Assembly: GCA_041585205.1 (NCBI GenBank)
Contig: JBFHCO010000001.1
Coordinates: forward strand, 1 to 44,045
Origin: Candidatus Omnitrophota bacterium
GTDB lineage: Bacteria; Omnitrophota; Omnitrophia; Omnitrophales; Aquincolibacteriaceae
Reading direction: 5' to 3'
Length of the DNA stretch: 44,045 nt
Shown here: positions 1-44,045 of the stretch, piece by piece
Layout of the letters: each line of letters starts with the position of its first letter
How positions within the stretch are numbered: the first letter of the stretch is position 1
Made by a program: the position numbers and the translations under genes
The notes under the pieces: model-generated
The model's database searches: none
What the model was told of the DNA's origin: nothing
The model's input: the letters and a program-made list of their open reading frames with translations, nothing else

Positions 1-968
1 CCGTCCACATCCGTTTTATGTATGTTGACGGACGGCGGGCCCAAATAAAATAAAATACCGCGGTCCATCAGTTGACGTTCCGCCATGAACGGAAAATTCA
101 CGATATCCGTCGGAAATTCCGCAAAATCCTCGAGGGGTTCCGGTATGTAGGGAACCACGGGCCATGTCGTGCTTTCCAGCCGGTTGTCACGCTGGGTTTT
201 GAAATGGACTTTCACATAATCGTGAAAGGGATATTCGCGGACATAATCAAATAAATTCTTAACCGCAGCATCATCCGAACTTAAATCAAAACTAAAATAA
301 ATCCGGAACTCTATAATGCGTTTCATATCCTGAAATATTTGGCTTTTCGAATTGGTCACATCTTCAAGTTTAAGCTTGTCTAGTTCCGGTTGAACAATCT
401 CGTGTATCCTGGTGAGCTTTTTTTTGTCACTTTCCACCGCGCCGTCTTTACCCCGGGAATACTTGATCAAAGACTGAATTTCAAAATAACCTTTGGCATT
501 GTTTTTATAGACAGCCCATAAAGCCGGTATCCATTTCATTTGCTCTTCGCGGGAAACGATGTTCTCCGCCCGGGAAAATTCAACGGCCAATATGAGGGTT
601 TGTAAAGCAACGACCGCGTCTTCATTGGATAACTTATCGCCGATATCCATCTCATTGGCCTTGATCATATTAATGTAATTGTTGATCAGCACCTGATGAA
701 TCAAACCCTCCTTGGACCGGACCAATGCCCTTAAAACGGGAGAGCGAATCTGTTCATACGTGAACGCGACGGAGTTATCGTGGGCTTGCAATGCGGTCCT
801 TAATTCTGAACGGAATCCTGAATTTTCGGTGGCGGGTTGGCGAAAAGCCGAAAGCGGAGTCGCCGGAAGGCATAATCCTACGACGATGATCAACGCGACG
901 AGTTTTAAAAAGTAATGACTGTTCGAGGTGGAACGCGACTTTTCAGAAGTCTTAAGGTAACTCGCCAC
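1..968 (-). CDS. Partial CDS (first ~322 codons; C-terminus lies beyond the window start): hypothetical exported protein
   Basis: The minus-strand frame is open from the window edge to a GTG at 966-968. An in-frame TGA lies at 987-989 and an AG-rich stretch precedes the GTG. The ORF is missing from the supplied track because it has no stop inside the window. The N-terminus (SHYFLKLVALIIVVGLCLPATPLSAF) looks like a signal peptide, and an RSELR pentapeptide sits at 798-812. The + ORFs 72..254 and 712..915 are antisense shadows. Confidence 0.6.
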   Translation of the reverse strand, partial: MASYLKTSEKSRSTSNSHYFLKLVALIIVVGLCLPATPLSAFRQPATENSGFRSELRTALQAHDNSVAFTYEQIRSPVLRALVRSKEGLIHQVLINNYINMIKANEMDIGDKLSNEDAVVALQTLILAVEFSRAENIVSREEQMKWIPALWAVYKNNAKGYFEIQSLIKYSRGKDGAVESDKKKLTRIHEIVQPELDKLKLEDVTNSKSQIFQDMKRIIEFRIYFSFDLSSDDAAVKNLFDYVREYPFHDYVKVHFKTQRDNRLESTTWPVVPYIPEPLEDFAEFPTDIVNFPFMAERQLMDRGILFYLGPPSVNIHKTDVD

Positions 969-1182
969 AATACTTACCCTAGCCTTTCATGGAATTTTTA
1001 TGCAACGATTCTTCTGCTGTGAATCACGATGTGCCAGAGGGTAGGAAAAGATAACACGCTAATTTCGAAAAAGCAAGTTTCGGGGGCGGTATTTTCGACT
1101 TAACTATCTTAACTATATGCACTTAAAGGAACTTAGGAAGTGCTTCTAAATGTTATAAATTGCTAGGTAATATGCGGACATC

Positions 1183-4100
1183 TTACGCCGCTCTCTCCAC
1201 CGCCAGCTGAGCAGCCTGGGTATCAAGGAGAGAATTGACATAACGGAGCATGAAGGAAATGGATTCTGCAATAGCTTCCGGGAACGGAAGCTGACTGTCT
1301 GTACGGGTTTTGCTTTTAAAGGCATCGACTGTGACCAGGAGTTTTAAGGCATTCACTTGATCGGCAAAGCGTATGCCGGGGATACGGCCAAAGGAACGGG
1401 CGACCCCTTCCCGGAGCATGACGCCATATTCTTTCATTTGGGTGTCGCTTTGGAATTCAAAAGGCGAACCGATTTCAGCGACAATCAAAGGCGTTTTCCC
1501 CATGCCGTTTCGAACGAGGCGCCTTTCTTCGATGGGTTTATTGACATCATTCCAGCCGGAATCAAGCAGCATGGGATTTTCCCTTAAGAATTGAGTCGGC
1601 TCATAATCGGATTGATTTCTCCCCAAAAAGAAGGCCAAGGCCGCGCGGTCGAAGTTTCGGGAGAGGAATTCCCCCGCCGCTTGACGGGCCTCGGTTTGGC
1701 CGGCATCGGGGAGAAGGATTTCAGGGATTAAAAGTGTTCTGATTTCAGGGATGGTGCCCGGGAATAAGGGCACTCCGTGCTTTTCTATATGGGCCTCATT
1801 TAAGGCCTTCCAGTTCCCCAGAAGGGCGCTCACCCCTTGGATATCGATGCCGGTGGTGTCGATAGTCGTAACGGTCGGCTCGGCCACGAAGAAATCAACG
1901 AGTCGTGGCGCGACCGTCGCGCGAACTTTATCCAGCATCACAAACCCGCGCGTACCCATGGCAAGCATTTGTGCAAGTTGAGGTGAAAACAATTTCGCTA
2001 AAATGGAGTTGATAGTCGTCTCCTCTTCCAAAGCTTGATTGACGCGTACGGTTTGTCCCTGCAGATAGTCTTCAACTCTTCGCAATTCGGAGCGCGCCTG
2101 ATCGCCGAGCCTGCGATTCAAAGCTTCCGGACTCTCGCGCAATGAGGCGCTGATCATGCTCTCACGCGTTTCTCCCGATAAGCTGACCAAAGGAGTTCTG
2201 AGCATCGCATCCATTGCACCCGGCCGCATTTCAGAACGCTTCGTTTGACCTGTTTCCGTATCCACTTCGGCACGGTCAGGTGATTCTGTTGCGGTATCGC
2301 GCATTTCCCCCGGATCCCCCGGCGCTGTTTCCCTCGTAAACTGCCGTTCTGTGATCGGACCCATCGCGGGCCGATTACTTCTCTCAACAAGCTGTCTGAC
2401 CGCTTCTTTCGATGCCTCCCCCCGTCTTGACTGAACGATTTGAAGCCCCTCGTCGTCATCGTAAACAAACTCGATATCCCGCATGTCCATGTAATACTTT
2501 TCGATTTTTATGGCGTTTTCAATCAAGCTGTAAAATTCGATCAAATCATCAAAAGCCCATTCGCTTTGCCCCTGGCGCACCTTGACCTCGATTTCCCCCG
2601 TTTCTTTGTCGTAAATGATACGATCTGTGTCAGCGATACCGCTCACCACATCTTCACCGGGCGTGCGCGCGATATTAATAATAATCCTATTCTGATTAAG
2701 CGTATTGGGATCATTGGTCATCACGACTCCGCTTTTCTTTGATTTGATCATTTTCTGAACCACCACGGCATGATTTAATTGCTTCAAATTCAGACCATTA
2801 TTCAGACGGTACCAGATGGAATTCGGGTGATACAAAGCGGCAAAATTCAGAATAATCGCTTGCATTAAATTGCCGGATGGCACATCCGGGGTCGTAAGAT
2901 TCGCGCCGGCAAAGGGTTTGTCTGAATCCTCATCCACGGCGGAGGAGCGGACGATCACGCGTTCCGCTCCCAACTTCTCAAATTCGTCTTGAACTCCATT
3001 TTCAATCTGCGGCGGGATTTCCGTATCTAATATATCCGCGCGAATGGATTCCAGGATTCCGGCTATTTCCTTTTCAAGGGCCGGTGTTAACCGCCTGCCC
3101 GCTTCGTTGAATTTTCTTTGAATCTCATCCATGCGCCGGTCAATGGCATCTCTTAAAGCAGGGTCTAAAAGCTCTTGAAAAACATTGGTTGTCACAATGA
3201 ACCCTTGGGGAACGGGCAATCCTAAAGCGGACATCACGGCTAAATTGGCCCCTTTTCCTCCCATGGTTTGGACCAAAGCAGCCATATCAACGGCTTCCGA
3301 ATCCAGGCCTGTTTCATCCAATCGGACAAAATCGCGATCACTCAAATCGACACCGGCGGCCCGTGACGCCTGCTGCCGGACATTCCAAGCGGATTCCGCC
3401 TGCGCCTCGCGCTTCATCCAAACTTCAAGCGTTGCGTCATCAATTTGACCCGAGGGGCCTTCCGTGCCCTCCGGCTGAATGGGAAGAGCGCCTTCAGGAC
3501 CTTCCTCACCGTGAATAATCAAGCGCCCCGTTGCGCCGTCAACGGTAACTTGAGCCCCTTCCGCTAATTCGATGTCGGTCGTTTGAACCTGATAAGTTTC
3601 AACCCCGTCAACTACTTGTCGCGAACCATCAACCGCCTGGAGGCTTCTTAGATGCAATTTACCTTTCAGCCAAAAGACGTCACGCAAAATGATATGCGGA
3701 ATGCCGGCACCCCGTGCCGTCAACGCGGCATGACTTTGTTCAGCGCCTTGGGTCGTCACCATACCGATTTCCATGCCGAAAATCGGATTATCATCCGGAG
3801 TCGTGTAGGGAGCCAAATAGATATCACCGTCTTTCAAATTCTGCTTGTTATAGACAAGGCGGCCCGTTTTAACACCCGGGCTTGAAGCTAATCCCTTAAA
3901 AATTGCCTGCTCTTTCGGTAAAACACGTTCGACATCCGTTTGATTCAATACCGCTTGGGCCATACGCTGTTTGCCGGCAATTTGCACCGCATTGGCGGTG
4001 ACCGGAAAAGAACTGCCTAAACGTTCCATCACATTTTTAAGTTTAATATCTGATATCTCGAAAGCACCGGGCCTTCTTACCGTTTGTTCTGTTTGCGCAT

Positions 4101-43800: not shown

Positions 43801-44025
43801 GACCGTTTCAATCAAATCGGATTCCGTCTGCAATTGATGAAACGCAATCAAGTCATCCAAATCGCGCGCATTGCGGCGGATGCGGTTGACAAGCCCGGTG
43901 GCTGTCAGGTTGTTCTCGACCAGCATTCTTTGCAGTCCGGTATCCGTCTTGGCGGCTTGAACCAATATATCCTCCAGGCGGAAAACCGAATGCAGCGCCT
44001 GTGTCACGCGCTCGCGCATTTTCAT
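40828..44025 (-). CDS. 1,065-aa protein with an HExxH motif (possible zinc metallopeptidase) and the shared C-terminal tail; the N-terminus may lie outside the window
   Basis: Long uninterrupted frame ending in TAA at 40828-40830. The first ATG is at 44023-44025, but the frame stays open to the window end (44045) and has no obvious RBS. LLSVLVHEMDHKRQ carries HEMDH at 41584-41598. An RAEMR pentapeptide sits at 42049-42063. The protein ends ...RYLNDRILGLLNEMVGMRMMLVAA. Confidence 0.8.
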   Translation of the reverse strand: MKMRERVTQALHSVFRLEDILVQAAKTDTGLQRMLVENNLTATGLVNRIRRNARDLDDLIAFHQLQTESDLIETVKIALQSGAVSRGLAQEKLLERVEKAIHEGNAEEALGIIQTDWMNRQHDIQDLLRIAPYEKTDEKYPDKVNQTIQERIDREIDLSRRVRALLIKLESLREMAGEEFINNLINQLTLQGRDLSEIEELMECGHAGCMREILALMVRDTGRYLAEEKRLKGITFSRHPSGLQNVDREETKKQVQRQVDQRQWDALRGTIEAGGIDGAWTAYYLFRDYFGNTEVQNQILQTYQTGAQAYDAVMKLLLNINQVYPGDENGSVRDPLMQAVLGQMAKTATLEQLKTVFERILKEDQSQDAGGLVRNAAAKAWEALNWNLTNPAVREFLATLYTVTGKSYLELVTTDVGNVERIWALTQGPTALDMLHHTERAFEQAVSQPHADTPSLIEGAPIYMAAGARRQKYASESVGYYQNFMLHNHPTRDDGGAQILWSGQYANYDSLMQTGRLRADGSMERLGYSYIVTKFGIVKFYVVDEQQGDRTFSESQLRMADGSSLKIQQPWLDQHNAAKGGMLDQIALGLAVKGMNFDMDIVEEGFLMKAEFKTWNSLANPEEMAAFIVGGDGQSVIRPMNAAERAQYDRKVQSRAEMRQDSVAIREELADMQLPDEYLDWLAQVIARLKRNEVSPARVLFEEAAELGALLAGSKQMTPQLKEALLALPEEIRAMEIMGVDPADTESPYFGILKEHHTALLDTRTTPRIVFHQKMIQKQLNGMLEPRPFRRGDAEEVLSVLRDLLSVLVHEMDHKRQVNILLSRLELEQSAYQKNIELWKILQEVTFAGEITPYQNQISMISAMLALAQAKPIERIPPDIQQLAIQILIGSADPVVAENMLARMQARVITNDVNFQGSPGVIYVSTLDGMLREVRKAPNAEHTVVLISKDFLRDESVNQTMLDQTGKSLGDWLRQDMKVGVMAFDEIMPDFIRTRGWDGSDYNDFLVEFSWIAAFLGVTEFNELMWREFQVPKAAGVFEMSRYLNDRILGLLNEMVGMRMMLVAA

Positions 44026-44045
44026 GGCTTCGGCACGCGGCCAGC

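Follow-up and report, generated by a model that had tools for sequence, protein, structure and literature searches.

Whether the giant proteins of Omnitrophota act as one chain or are cut into smaller units has been asked in three papers, in which the cleavage points and protease motifs are unknown (West-Roberts 2023, bioRxiv 10.1101/2023.11.21.568195; Nielsen & Lui 2026, 10.64898/2026.06.07.730766; Seymour 2023, PMC10066038). The locus described here raises the same question. The window, by which we mean the whole stretch of DNA that was analysed, is an entire NCBI contig record of 44,045 bases from Candidatus Omnitrophota (JBFHCO010000001.1). Two of its genes, G1 (1183..10719) and G2 (13390..40263), encode proteins of 3,178 and 8,957 amino acids (aa); these and all other features given below lie on the minus strand. 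It is near-certain, as a description, that the window carries two complete members of a large family without a name, G1 and G2, and it probably carries one truncated member as well, an open reading frame (ORF) that is open at the contig edge.

The architecture of the family can be given with near certainty from the sequence comparisons. Its members consist, in order, of a signal peptide, an N-terminal module (N-module; about 650 aa), a variable series of cargo modules (about 300 aa apiece) and a C-terminal module, again of about 300 aa. The cargo modules are separated by the pentapeptide R-[S/A]-E-[V/L/M]-R (RSExR for short), which lies in variable linkers, and the last helix of the C-terminal module ends in [A/S]-A-COOH. 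The original prediction, made from the letters of this DNA, had described the two giants as non-repetitive mosaics tied together by an N-module, a pentapeptide and a C-terminal tail. This description holds: all three features are found again in related loci and across some 10,000 protein clusters, and neither the tandem-repeat scan of the window nor internal BLAST of G1 and G2 returned any repeat. The share of the window ascribed to the two ORFs, about 36.4 kb, was also correct (36,411 nt of 44,045 bases as measured). About 85% of both G1 and G2 is unmatched in Pfam, NCBIfam and PDB sequence searches.

The shared N-terminal module

The N-module is common to G1 (residues 8-534), G2 (13-572) and a 524-aa ORF beside G1 (33-480), with BLASTP E values of 1e-37, 1e-18 and 1e-15. 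Together with the signal peptide, it occupies residues 1 to about 650 of G1 (8770..10719), as delimited by BLASTP, alignment and AlphaFold2 (AF2) modelling, and residues 1 to about 600 of G2 (38464..40263), as delimited by BLASTP and alignment. A profile of 19 diverse copies, searched against a library of 1.84 billion proteins in clusters at 50% identity, matched 10,429 clusters at E<=1e-3 and 7,342 at E<=1e-30. The module lies at residues ~5-550 of proteins of up to ~8,000 aa and is N-terminal in all 150 matches listed; no Pfam or NCBIfam model covers it. The GTDB species genomes contain 211 relatives. Of these, the best 80 come almost all from Candidatus Omnitrophota, where one genome often has several, frequently in tandem. 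Tail and motif are both absent from stand-alone N-module proteins. One of them, of 654 aa (P0022), is encoded by Candidatus Theseobacter exili of Candidatus Auribacterota, indicating that the stand-alone domain is not strictly confined to Omnitrophota.

After the signal-peptide-like segment, the module displays the signature IQDAH...EG...GIE...FY..A..R...GGFH. Alignment of the 19 members revealed H78, E106, E159 and Y422 (G1 numbering) as invariant and R428 and G453-G454-x-H456 as at least 90% conserved, while Q84, E106-G107, G157-x-E159 and Y164 complete the set of conserved or nearly invariant positions. The AF2 model computed from the same alignment is confident (predicted local distance difference test [pLDDT] 85, predicted template modelling score [pTM] 0.76) and comprises an N-terminal helix, a disordered stretch and a small alpha/beta core with strands at 56-76, 102-111, 154-158, 447-453 and 470-476; some 250 aa of helical insertion interrupt this core. 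Among Pfam models, Cofac_haem_bdg/ChaN matches 5 of the 19 members, at best with E 4.2e-5 and 24 bits (cut-off 27.7), and further sub-threshold matches are to TraB_PrgY_gumN (0.0049), DUF5694 (0.0014) and Erythro_esteras (0.25). The GGFH segment maps to the C-terminal end of the ChaN, TraB/PrgY/GumN and DUF5694 models, co-linearly and below the Pfam cut-offs.

The ChaN, TraB, DUF5694 and Erythro_esteras families belong to one clan, which includes hydrolases and the Tiki protease. With the Tiki, TraB-PrgY-GumN, ChaN and erythromycin-esterase families (PF04187, PF01963, PF18950, PF05139) the N-module has in common an alpha/beta core with a conserved His close to strand one, a Glu following strand two, an Arg and, at the C-terminal end, G-G-x-H-x-x-G; it differs from them in the insertion that splits its core, in scores that stay sub-threshold and in having no significant PDB match. 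A likely, though not established, assignment of the N-module is to a divergent alpha/beta hydrolase-like domain of the Tiki/ChaN/TraB/EreA type, which carries a conserved set of His, Glu, His and Arg and is interrupted by helical sequence. Of the earlier description of a shared hydrolase-like N-module, the sharing is thus real, whereas the hydrolase identity is indicated by sub-threshold Pfam matches only. We know of no description of a Tiki-type domain fused to the N-terminus of giant proteins.

A recurrent pentapeptide at module boundaries

The pentapeptide R[AS]ExR occurs six times in G1 compared with 0.2 times in shuffled sequences, three times in G2 compared with 0.6 (a weak excess when taken alone) and once in the edge ORF. 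There are 1.5 copies per 1,000 aa in a set of 80 family ORFs (201,701 aa) and 1.68 in a set of 137 independent representatives (449,178 aa), the expectation from composition being 0.064 and the density in ordinary ORFs of <1,000 aa from the same loci 0.067. It is about 25 times commoner than composition predicts. When all abc.d patterns were counted without bias, RSE.R came first outside the N-module (226 observed, 5.2 expected). This enrichment, in G1 and family-wide, goes far past what chance would give, and the motif sits at module boundaries. A full-text literature search for the pentapeptides returned only unrelated alginate-lyase motifs.

The consensus of the motif is R-S(73%)/A(27%)-E-[V/L/M/A/T]-R, and its flanks, which show no conservation, abound in A, P, S, E and G. 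The median spacing is 295 aa, with the first copy about 250 aa past the GGFH of the N-module. In alignments of related giants the motif is kept at 42-60% of the aligned positions, the flanks being 24-50% identical and indel-rich. Of the ends of cargo homology blocks, 41% fall no more than 25 aa from a motif (12% for random placement), and blocks both start and stop on the motif. We infer from these positions that RSExR is a recognition element at module boundaries.

A motif scan placed the six copies of G1 at aa 672 (RAETR, 8692..8706), 812 (RAETR, 8272..8286), 860 (RSELR, 8128..8142), 1429 (RSEIR, 6421..6435), 2828 (RSEMR, 2224..2238) and 2876 (RSELR, 2080..2094). All six are in or beside linker-like segments, and they bracket the N-module, the 900-1400 region, a dikinase block and the C-terminal module. 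The same scan found the three copies of G2 at aa 747 (RAELR, 38011..38025), which is the usual place right after the N-module, at aa 6798 (RSELR, 19858..19872) and at aa 8725 (RAELR, 14077..14091), 232 aa before the C-terminus.

The codons of the motif are skewed. For its Ser, the sites in L003-L082, L001 and the window use TCN without exception and AGY not once, with AGY making up 32% of background Ser codons; the first Arg is CGC or CGT in 78% and the last is CGG in 41%, while the codons of Glu and of the x position are varied. The skew is compatible with either common descent of motif copies with S/A exchange or a constraint at the nucleotide level. Three other patterns, MNF.N, EMN.Y and FYN.Y, are 55-84 times over-represented in family ORFs (L003-L082), which points to a conserved cargo domain, so far unannotated, that some of the members have.

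The C-terminal tail

G1, G2 and the edge ORF all end in -AA (QLAVERAA, KRETARAA and MRMMLVAA), and their ends align with 41 other tails. Homology and tail alignment delimit the C-terminal module of G1, which comprises the ~300 aa past the last motif and ends in a helix plus QLAVERAA, at 1186..2079; the tail of G2, placed by tail alignment, is at 13393..13416. In the related loci, 43 of 60 large ORFs with a complete 3' end terminate in [AS]A, compared with 5 of 319 small ORFs, and so do 98 of 125 large representatives (~78%). The -AA tail that had been noticed in the window is a feature of most large members of the family. It forms the final part of a conserved helix module, 40-70 aa long, and in 58 of 89 proteins a distance of 200-400 aa separates the last internal motif from the C-terminus (302 aa in G1, 232 aa in G2).

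Tail and pentapeptide are related elements, as seen from the presence of R[AS]ExR within the last 14 residues of 12 of 133 distinct tails (9%; 0.085 expected), for example RAEVRKAA and YRSEIRAAQSA. Internal motifs are followed by x[AS]A in only 16 of 1,056 cases, which argues that they are not internal copies of the full tail.

Export signals, cysteine depletion and cargo

The N-termini of G1 and G2 have a charged segment, a hydrophobic segment and AxA-like sites (TWA-Q and AWA-D, the hyphen marking the site), and an N-terminal hydrophobic segment is present in 112 of 125 representatives. This suggests Sec-type export of both proteins and of the family. Neither protein has a single cysteine in the 12,135 aa that they comprise together, and the cysteine content of the family is 0.09-0.15% compared with 0.81% in neighbouring ORFs. 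Motif-less members tend to have more cysteines (13 in P0053, 19 in P0070, 15 in P0162). A Kyte-Doolittle scan revealed no internal hydrophobic segment in G1, and about half of the family is without one.

The cargo varies extremely between members. Recognisable domains in 14 other representatives (P0027-P0102) are HEAT_2, HATPase_c, RamC_N, Sigma70_r4, SpoIIE (PP2C) and Fic. Cytoplasm-type domains that use ATP or bind DNA are thus found on proteins that start with an export signal.

The dikinase foreseen in G1 was recovered by Pfam as a PEP-utilizers mobile His domain at aa 2296-2398 (QSHAALTARGAGIP, 3526..3834) and a PPDK_N ATP-grasp at aa 2484-2774 (2398..3270, E 4e-52). Like PEP synthase, PPDK and rifampin phosphotransferase, this part combines an ATP-grasp with a swivelling His domain bearing a TSHAA-like catalytic motif. 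It departs from PEP synthase and PPDK in its permuted order, the His domain being N-terminal to the ATP-grasp, in the absence of PEP-utilizers_C (the PEP/pyruvate-binding barrel) from the Pfam matches of G1, in its dikinase equivalog score (168 bits against an NCBIfam cut-off of 598) and in being embedded in a 3,178-aa protein with a predicted export signal. A wider block, aa 1877-2705, is present in P0132 too, a family member of 4,314 aa (E 4e-38), and is thus a recurrent cargo cassette; the N-module aside, the homology of G1 to other members is limited to this block and the last 130-200 aa. The kinase-like fold proposed for aa ~930-1300 was not substantiated: there is a DRKAEN...IDHD motif only, with no Pfam match and nothing above noise in a lenient PDB search. 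AF2 on aa 640-1460, run from a single sequence, gave a pLDDT of 37, which is unusable for fold or for linker disorder.

In G2, the hydropathy scan (Kyte-Doolittle) bears out the predicted transmembrane (TM) bundle as two hydrophobic clusters, one of ~3 segments at aa 1228-1430 (35974..36582) and one of ~11 segments with a loop of ~400 aa at aa 5481-6567 (20563..23823). Between them, at aa 3422-3615 (29419..30000), Pfam detects OEP, the TolC-like outer membrane efflux protein, in two stretches and above the gathering score (E 4e-11, 43.5 bits against a cut-off of 22); this part is a candidate outer membrane factor domain. A HEAT-repeat array (HEAT_2; Pfam and NCBIfam) extends over aa ~7882-8541 (14641..16620), so that the TolC-like and HEAT parts of the prediction both stand. 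No homologs of the G2 cargo were detected, and a search with the TM and loop region (aa 5440-6620) returned nothing. The glycosyltransferase, placed as a GT2-type enzyme at aa ~5590-5985, was not supported, with no Pfam match, noise in a lenient PDB search and no homologs. Of the named domains, then, dikinase, TolC-like, HEAT, helix-turn-helix (HTH) and TM parts are found by Pfam or hydropathy, and the kinase-like and glycosyltransferase parts are not; the hydrolase-like assignment stays at sub-threshold matches.

The edge ORF (40828..44043, at least 1,071 aa; called the 1065-aa ORF) has a frame, WPRAEA-MKMRER..., with no in-frame stop before the contig edge. The motif scan found one RAEMR (42049-42063) and one HEMDH (41584-41598) in it, and its C-terminal tail MRMMLVAA aligns with family tails. 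The part present has no signal peptide or N-module, no Pfam or NCBIfam match and no homologs in the 80 loci or 137 representatives. The open frame, the RAEMR and the aligned AA tail make it likelier to be the C-terminal part of a third giant, and we regard it as probably belonging to a third family member. It had been put forward as an HExxH protein upstream of G2; the HEMDH is there, whereas no metalloprotease family supports it and the frame is open at the edge. A zincin metalloprotease was not supported, given a single HEMDH, no recognisable domain and about 0.3 HExxH expected by chance across the window proteins, and comparison with P0025, a family member that bears an HExxH, revealed no similarity.

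Organization of the locus and neighbouring genes

The minus strand carries everything in the window: five ORFs, one more truncated ORF and a tRNA-Asp, in agreement with the co-directional protein genes and single tRNA that had been claimed. In the order of transcription these are the edge ORF, G2, a terminator-like hairpin, tRNA-Asp, the 524-aa ORF, an HTH protein, G1 and a truncated lipoprotein-like ORF. The tRNA-Asp (GTC; 13031..13105), found by tRNA prediction and Rfam and the only hit of the Rfam scan of the window, is embedded between two giant-gene units. The hairpin, which resembles an intrinsic terminator (11-bp stem followed by a T run, 13329..13353), lies just 3' of G2, and promoter-like sites precede the tRNA-Asp (13126-13154) and the 524-aa ORF (12956-12984). 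The strong terminator after G2 and the promoter-like sites argue that the locus is not one operon; it is predicted to comprise at least three transcription units.

The HTH gene (10716..11144, 142 aa, likely ATG at 11129) encodes an HTH_17/excisionase-type DNA-binding protein according to Pfam, and its C-terminal half has only a weak L19-like match. Its TGA overlaps the ATG of G1 as ATGA, which agrees with the predicted translational coupling to a giant ORF. HTH homologs lie immediately 5' of, or overlap, the starts of family giants in five other Omnitrophota loci (L013, L072, L022, L058 and L007), suggesting that the coupled regulator recurs. The 524-aa ORF (11359..12933) encodes a stand-alone N-module protein with a signal peptide, no AA tail and no motif. 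Its ortholog occupies the same position beside a 4,143-aa giant on a 288-kb JGI contig (L001); this giant has an N-module 48% identical to that of G1, unrelated cargo, no cysteine and seven motifs in the part fetched. At the start of the contig, the truncated ORF (3..986) runs off the contig edge and encodes a putative lipoprotein with a lipobox (VVGLC) and no Pfam match. An RSELR (798-812) lies about 20 aa past the lipobox Cys, with about 0.02 expected by chance at such size.

Elsewhere, family genes occur in co-directional tandem arrays, and there are cargo-only ORFs with tails. The recurrent neighbours are SNF-family transporters (14 of 109 flanking ORFs), CitMHS (9 of 109) and housekeeping genes. 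A conserved ORF of ~965 aa 5' of one orthologous group of giants (many of L020-L053, e.g., L048:3001-5883) is a transaldolase/phosphoglucose-isomerase fusion.

Possible modes of action

The reading that we favour, tentatively, is that the members of this family are Sec-exported modular polyproteins that are processed, or at least recognised, at RSExR. The chain would be threaded unfolded through Sec, a passage suggested by the lack of cysteines. RSExR, which is also found inside some tails, would be the recognition element of the module boundaries, most likely for endoproteolytic processing, and processing would release or expose single cargo modules (dikinase-like, HATPase, Fic, PP2C, kinase-like, HEAT, TolC-like). 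The targets of these modules might be the cell envelope or a host or prey cell, and the giants would then resemble a bacterial polyprotein or a multi-effector toxin of the MARTX type. The N-module would be the obvious candidate for processing or anchoring, which is the least supported step. Cargo of the ATP-using and signalling type would fit released effectors better than a static coat. Of the two readings offered originally, the polyprotein cut at the motif is preferred here as compatible with all findings, with the reservation that 15 of 125 members have an N-module and a tail but no motif.

Several observations weigh against this reading, in which cleavage at RSExR is a hypothesis. G2 has only three motifs in 8,957 aa (aa 747, 6798 and 8725), two of them separated by a gap of ~6,000 aa, and with such a motif-free stretch it would stay a huge membrane protein even if cut. 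Domains that depend on ATP pose a paradox outside the cytoplasm, one that delivery into another cell would resolve. Signal peptides and topology were assigned by a simple hydropathy scan (Kyte-Doolittle) and not by a trained predictor. No recurrent protease or secretion gene stands beside family genes among the 109 flanking ORFs. As for the N-module, every match to the Tiki clan sits under the Pfam thresholds, its profile found nothing relevant among PDB sequences, and Foldseek of its model against PDB gave nothing at E<=0.001, the long helical insertion dominating the matches and the erythromycin-esterase-like 2rad appearing only at rank 23 (E 2.8). The 15 motif-less large members among the 125, identified in a motif check, have an N-module with all conserved residues and mostly the AA tail, so that the function of the N-module cannot be only the cutting of RSExR; loss of N-module residues in these members was looked for, and the residues are kept. 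The N-module proteins of Omnitrophus fodinae (L003, L006 and L011) have no RSExR and no AA tail, and at least one lineage thus has the N-module with neither motif nor tail.

A bolder form of the polyprotein reading would have the Tiki-like N-module, or its stand-alone paralog beside G1, cut the exported chain at each RSExR, making the giants true Sec-exported polyproteins that deliver shuffled enzymes, ATP-using effectors among them, to the envelope or into host or prey cells. We consider this unlikely. If true, thousands of Omnitrophota proteins would share a new strategy of protein delivery, defined by a single N-domain, a single pentapeptide and a single tail.

It is also conceivable, although doubtful, that the giants are uncleaved single-chain scaffolds of the surface or envelope, in which RSExR serves as a docking or hinge motif for a common partner (peptidoglycan, an outer-membrane component or the N-module of a neighbouring molecule) and the AA helix is its terminal copy. 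For G2 this includes the single-chain synthase or envelope-spanning apparatus of the original prediction, for which its TolC-like OEP and two TM clusters speak, while no glycosyltransferase was found by Pfam, PDB or homolog searches and the case concerns G2 only. The HEAT scaffold and few motifs of G2 likewise suit an uncut scaffold, as do the motif-less members that keep N-module and tail, and a motif in a subset of tails is what would be expected of a binding epitope. Published Omnitrophota giants, moreover, are described as membrane-anchored coat proteins, with peptides mapped to a giant ORF. On the other hand, G1 and about half of the family are without an internal hydrophobic segment, Fic, HATPase, PP2C and dikinase-like cargo has no obvious role in a static extracytoplasmic coat, and RSExR has no named binding partner.

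Another explanation, which we think quite unlikely, takes the motif and the tail as export or targeting signals that would be read by a chaperone, by a PDZ-type receptor or protease (Prc/Ctp-like) or by an outer-membrane translocon. Such a partner would transport the unfolded chain, free of cysteine, through the outer membrane one segment at a time, or would perform quality control. Signals read at the C-terminus include PDZ ligands, ssrA-like tails and type 1 secretion signals, for which conservation of the very last residues and a free -AA carboxylate are typical. Proteins that pass the outer membrane in an unfolded state are typically poor in cysteine, and the tail is the most universal feature after the N-module. 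Yet the 109 flanking ORFs include no linked secretion or PDZ-protease gene, and the near-absence of x[AS]A after internal motifs (16/1,056) does not suit this explanation.

That the motif has no role as a peptide, being a scar of fused tail-bearing genes or a DNA or RNA signal for cassette shuffling or transcript processing, seems improbable. The co-directional tandem arrays, the cargo-only ORFs with tails, the tails that contain the motif, the homology blocks that begin or end at motifs and the skewed motif codons (Ser TCN only; first Arg CGC/CGT 78%, last Arg CGG 41%) would all agree with it. However, the Glu and x positions use synonymous, varied codons freely, and a neutral scar would not hold four of five residues while its flanks decay. 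TCN-only Ser is also expected from common descent with S/A exchange under selection at the protein level, and the Rfam scan of the window was empty apart from the tRNA. Finally, the idea that the giant ORFs are assembly artefacts, pseudogenes or non-coding, which a metagenome-assembled contig and G2 cargo without a detectable homolog might suggest, can be dismissed for practical purposes, as stop-free frames of 26.9 kb and 9.5 kb cannot be chance at the ~50% G+C of the window, there are no repeats to mislead an assembler, both ORFs start with the family N-module and end with the family tail, and there are hundreds of comparable full-length members.

Relation to known systems and significance

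The statement that no described system has this combination was too strong, since giant exported multi-enzyme mosaics with HEAT scaffolding, for which cleavage has been discussed, are a described hallmark of Omnitrophota (West-Roberts 2023, bioRxiv 10.1101/2023.11.21.568195; Nielsen & Lui 2026, 10.64898/2026.06.07.730766; Seymour 2023, PMC10066038). Archaeovorin-type genes are defined by a length of >90 kb or a protein of >30,000 aa, with divergent SecA_DEAD, many TM segments and glycosyl transferase, hydrolase, methyltransferase or NUDIX domains (West-Roberts 2023). The class 1 'multi-enzyme metabolic cluster' comprises proteins of at least 10,000 aa with many distinct Pfam domains, none dominating, HEAT/Adaptin scaffolding and a signal-peptide or signal-peptide-plus-TM topology (Nielsen & Lui 2026). 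The proteins described here resemble both in coming from the same phylum, in being very long, mostly unannotated, non-repetitive enzyme-like mosaics with HEAT scaffolding, in having signal-peptide-only and signal-peptide-plus-TM architectures and in a cleavage that is suspected and unproven. They differ from the Archaeovorin type in that G1 (3,178 aa) and G2 (8,957 aa) are below its thresholds, its listed domains were not found by Pfam in either and TM-like segments are present in G2 only. The likeness to class 1 is one of architecture, G1 and G2 both being under the 10,000-aa cut-off of the catalogue. Pfam found no SecA_DEAD, C39 or S8 domain in G1 or G2. No mention of the N-module, RSExR, the AA tail or cysteine depletion was found in the published papers on Omnitrophota giants. 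The kind of system is already known, while the signature of N-module, motif and tail, and its scale, appear new.

MARTX toxins are giant secreted chains with conserved ends, shuffled effector modules and linkers, and the effectors are released by a built-in protease at a short recurring site. They use type 1 secretion, have glycine-rich RTX repeats and a C80 cysteine protease that cuts after Leu, and have no Sec signal. The giants described here may be their functional analogs, given variable modules between conserved ends; they differ in having a signal-peptide-like segment at the N-terminus and no RTX repeats or C80 domain in G1 or G2 by Pfam and NCBIfam. The ssrA tag and the substrates of Prc, the tail-specific protease, have non-polar -AA recognition tails at the C-terminus. 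The family tails may be compared with these in their free non-polar -AA end after a short conserved stretch, and they differ from the ssrA tag in being encoded in the genome, within a helix module of 40-70 aa of giants that are predicted to be exported.

A sub-family of more than 7,000 clusters (50% identity) is now defined by three simple, searchable features. Its five-residue motif marks module boundaries and links to the C-terminal tail, and it gives a rational way to divide the giants into units for structure prediction and annotation. These features are the first concrete candidate sites for testing whether such giants are cut. The giant genes of Omnitrophota are known and yet have been called poorly understood, and the question of their cleavage can now be tested directly.

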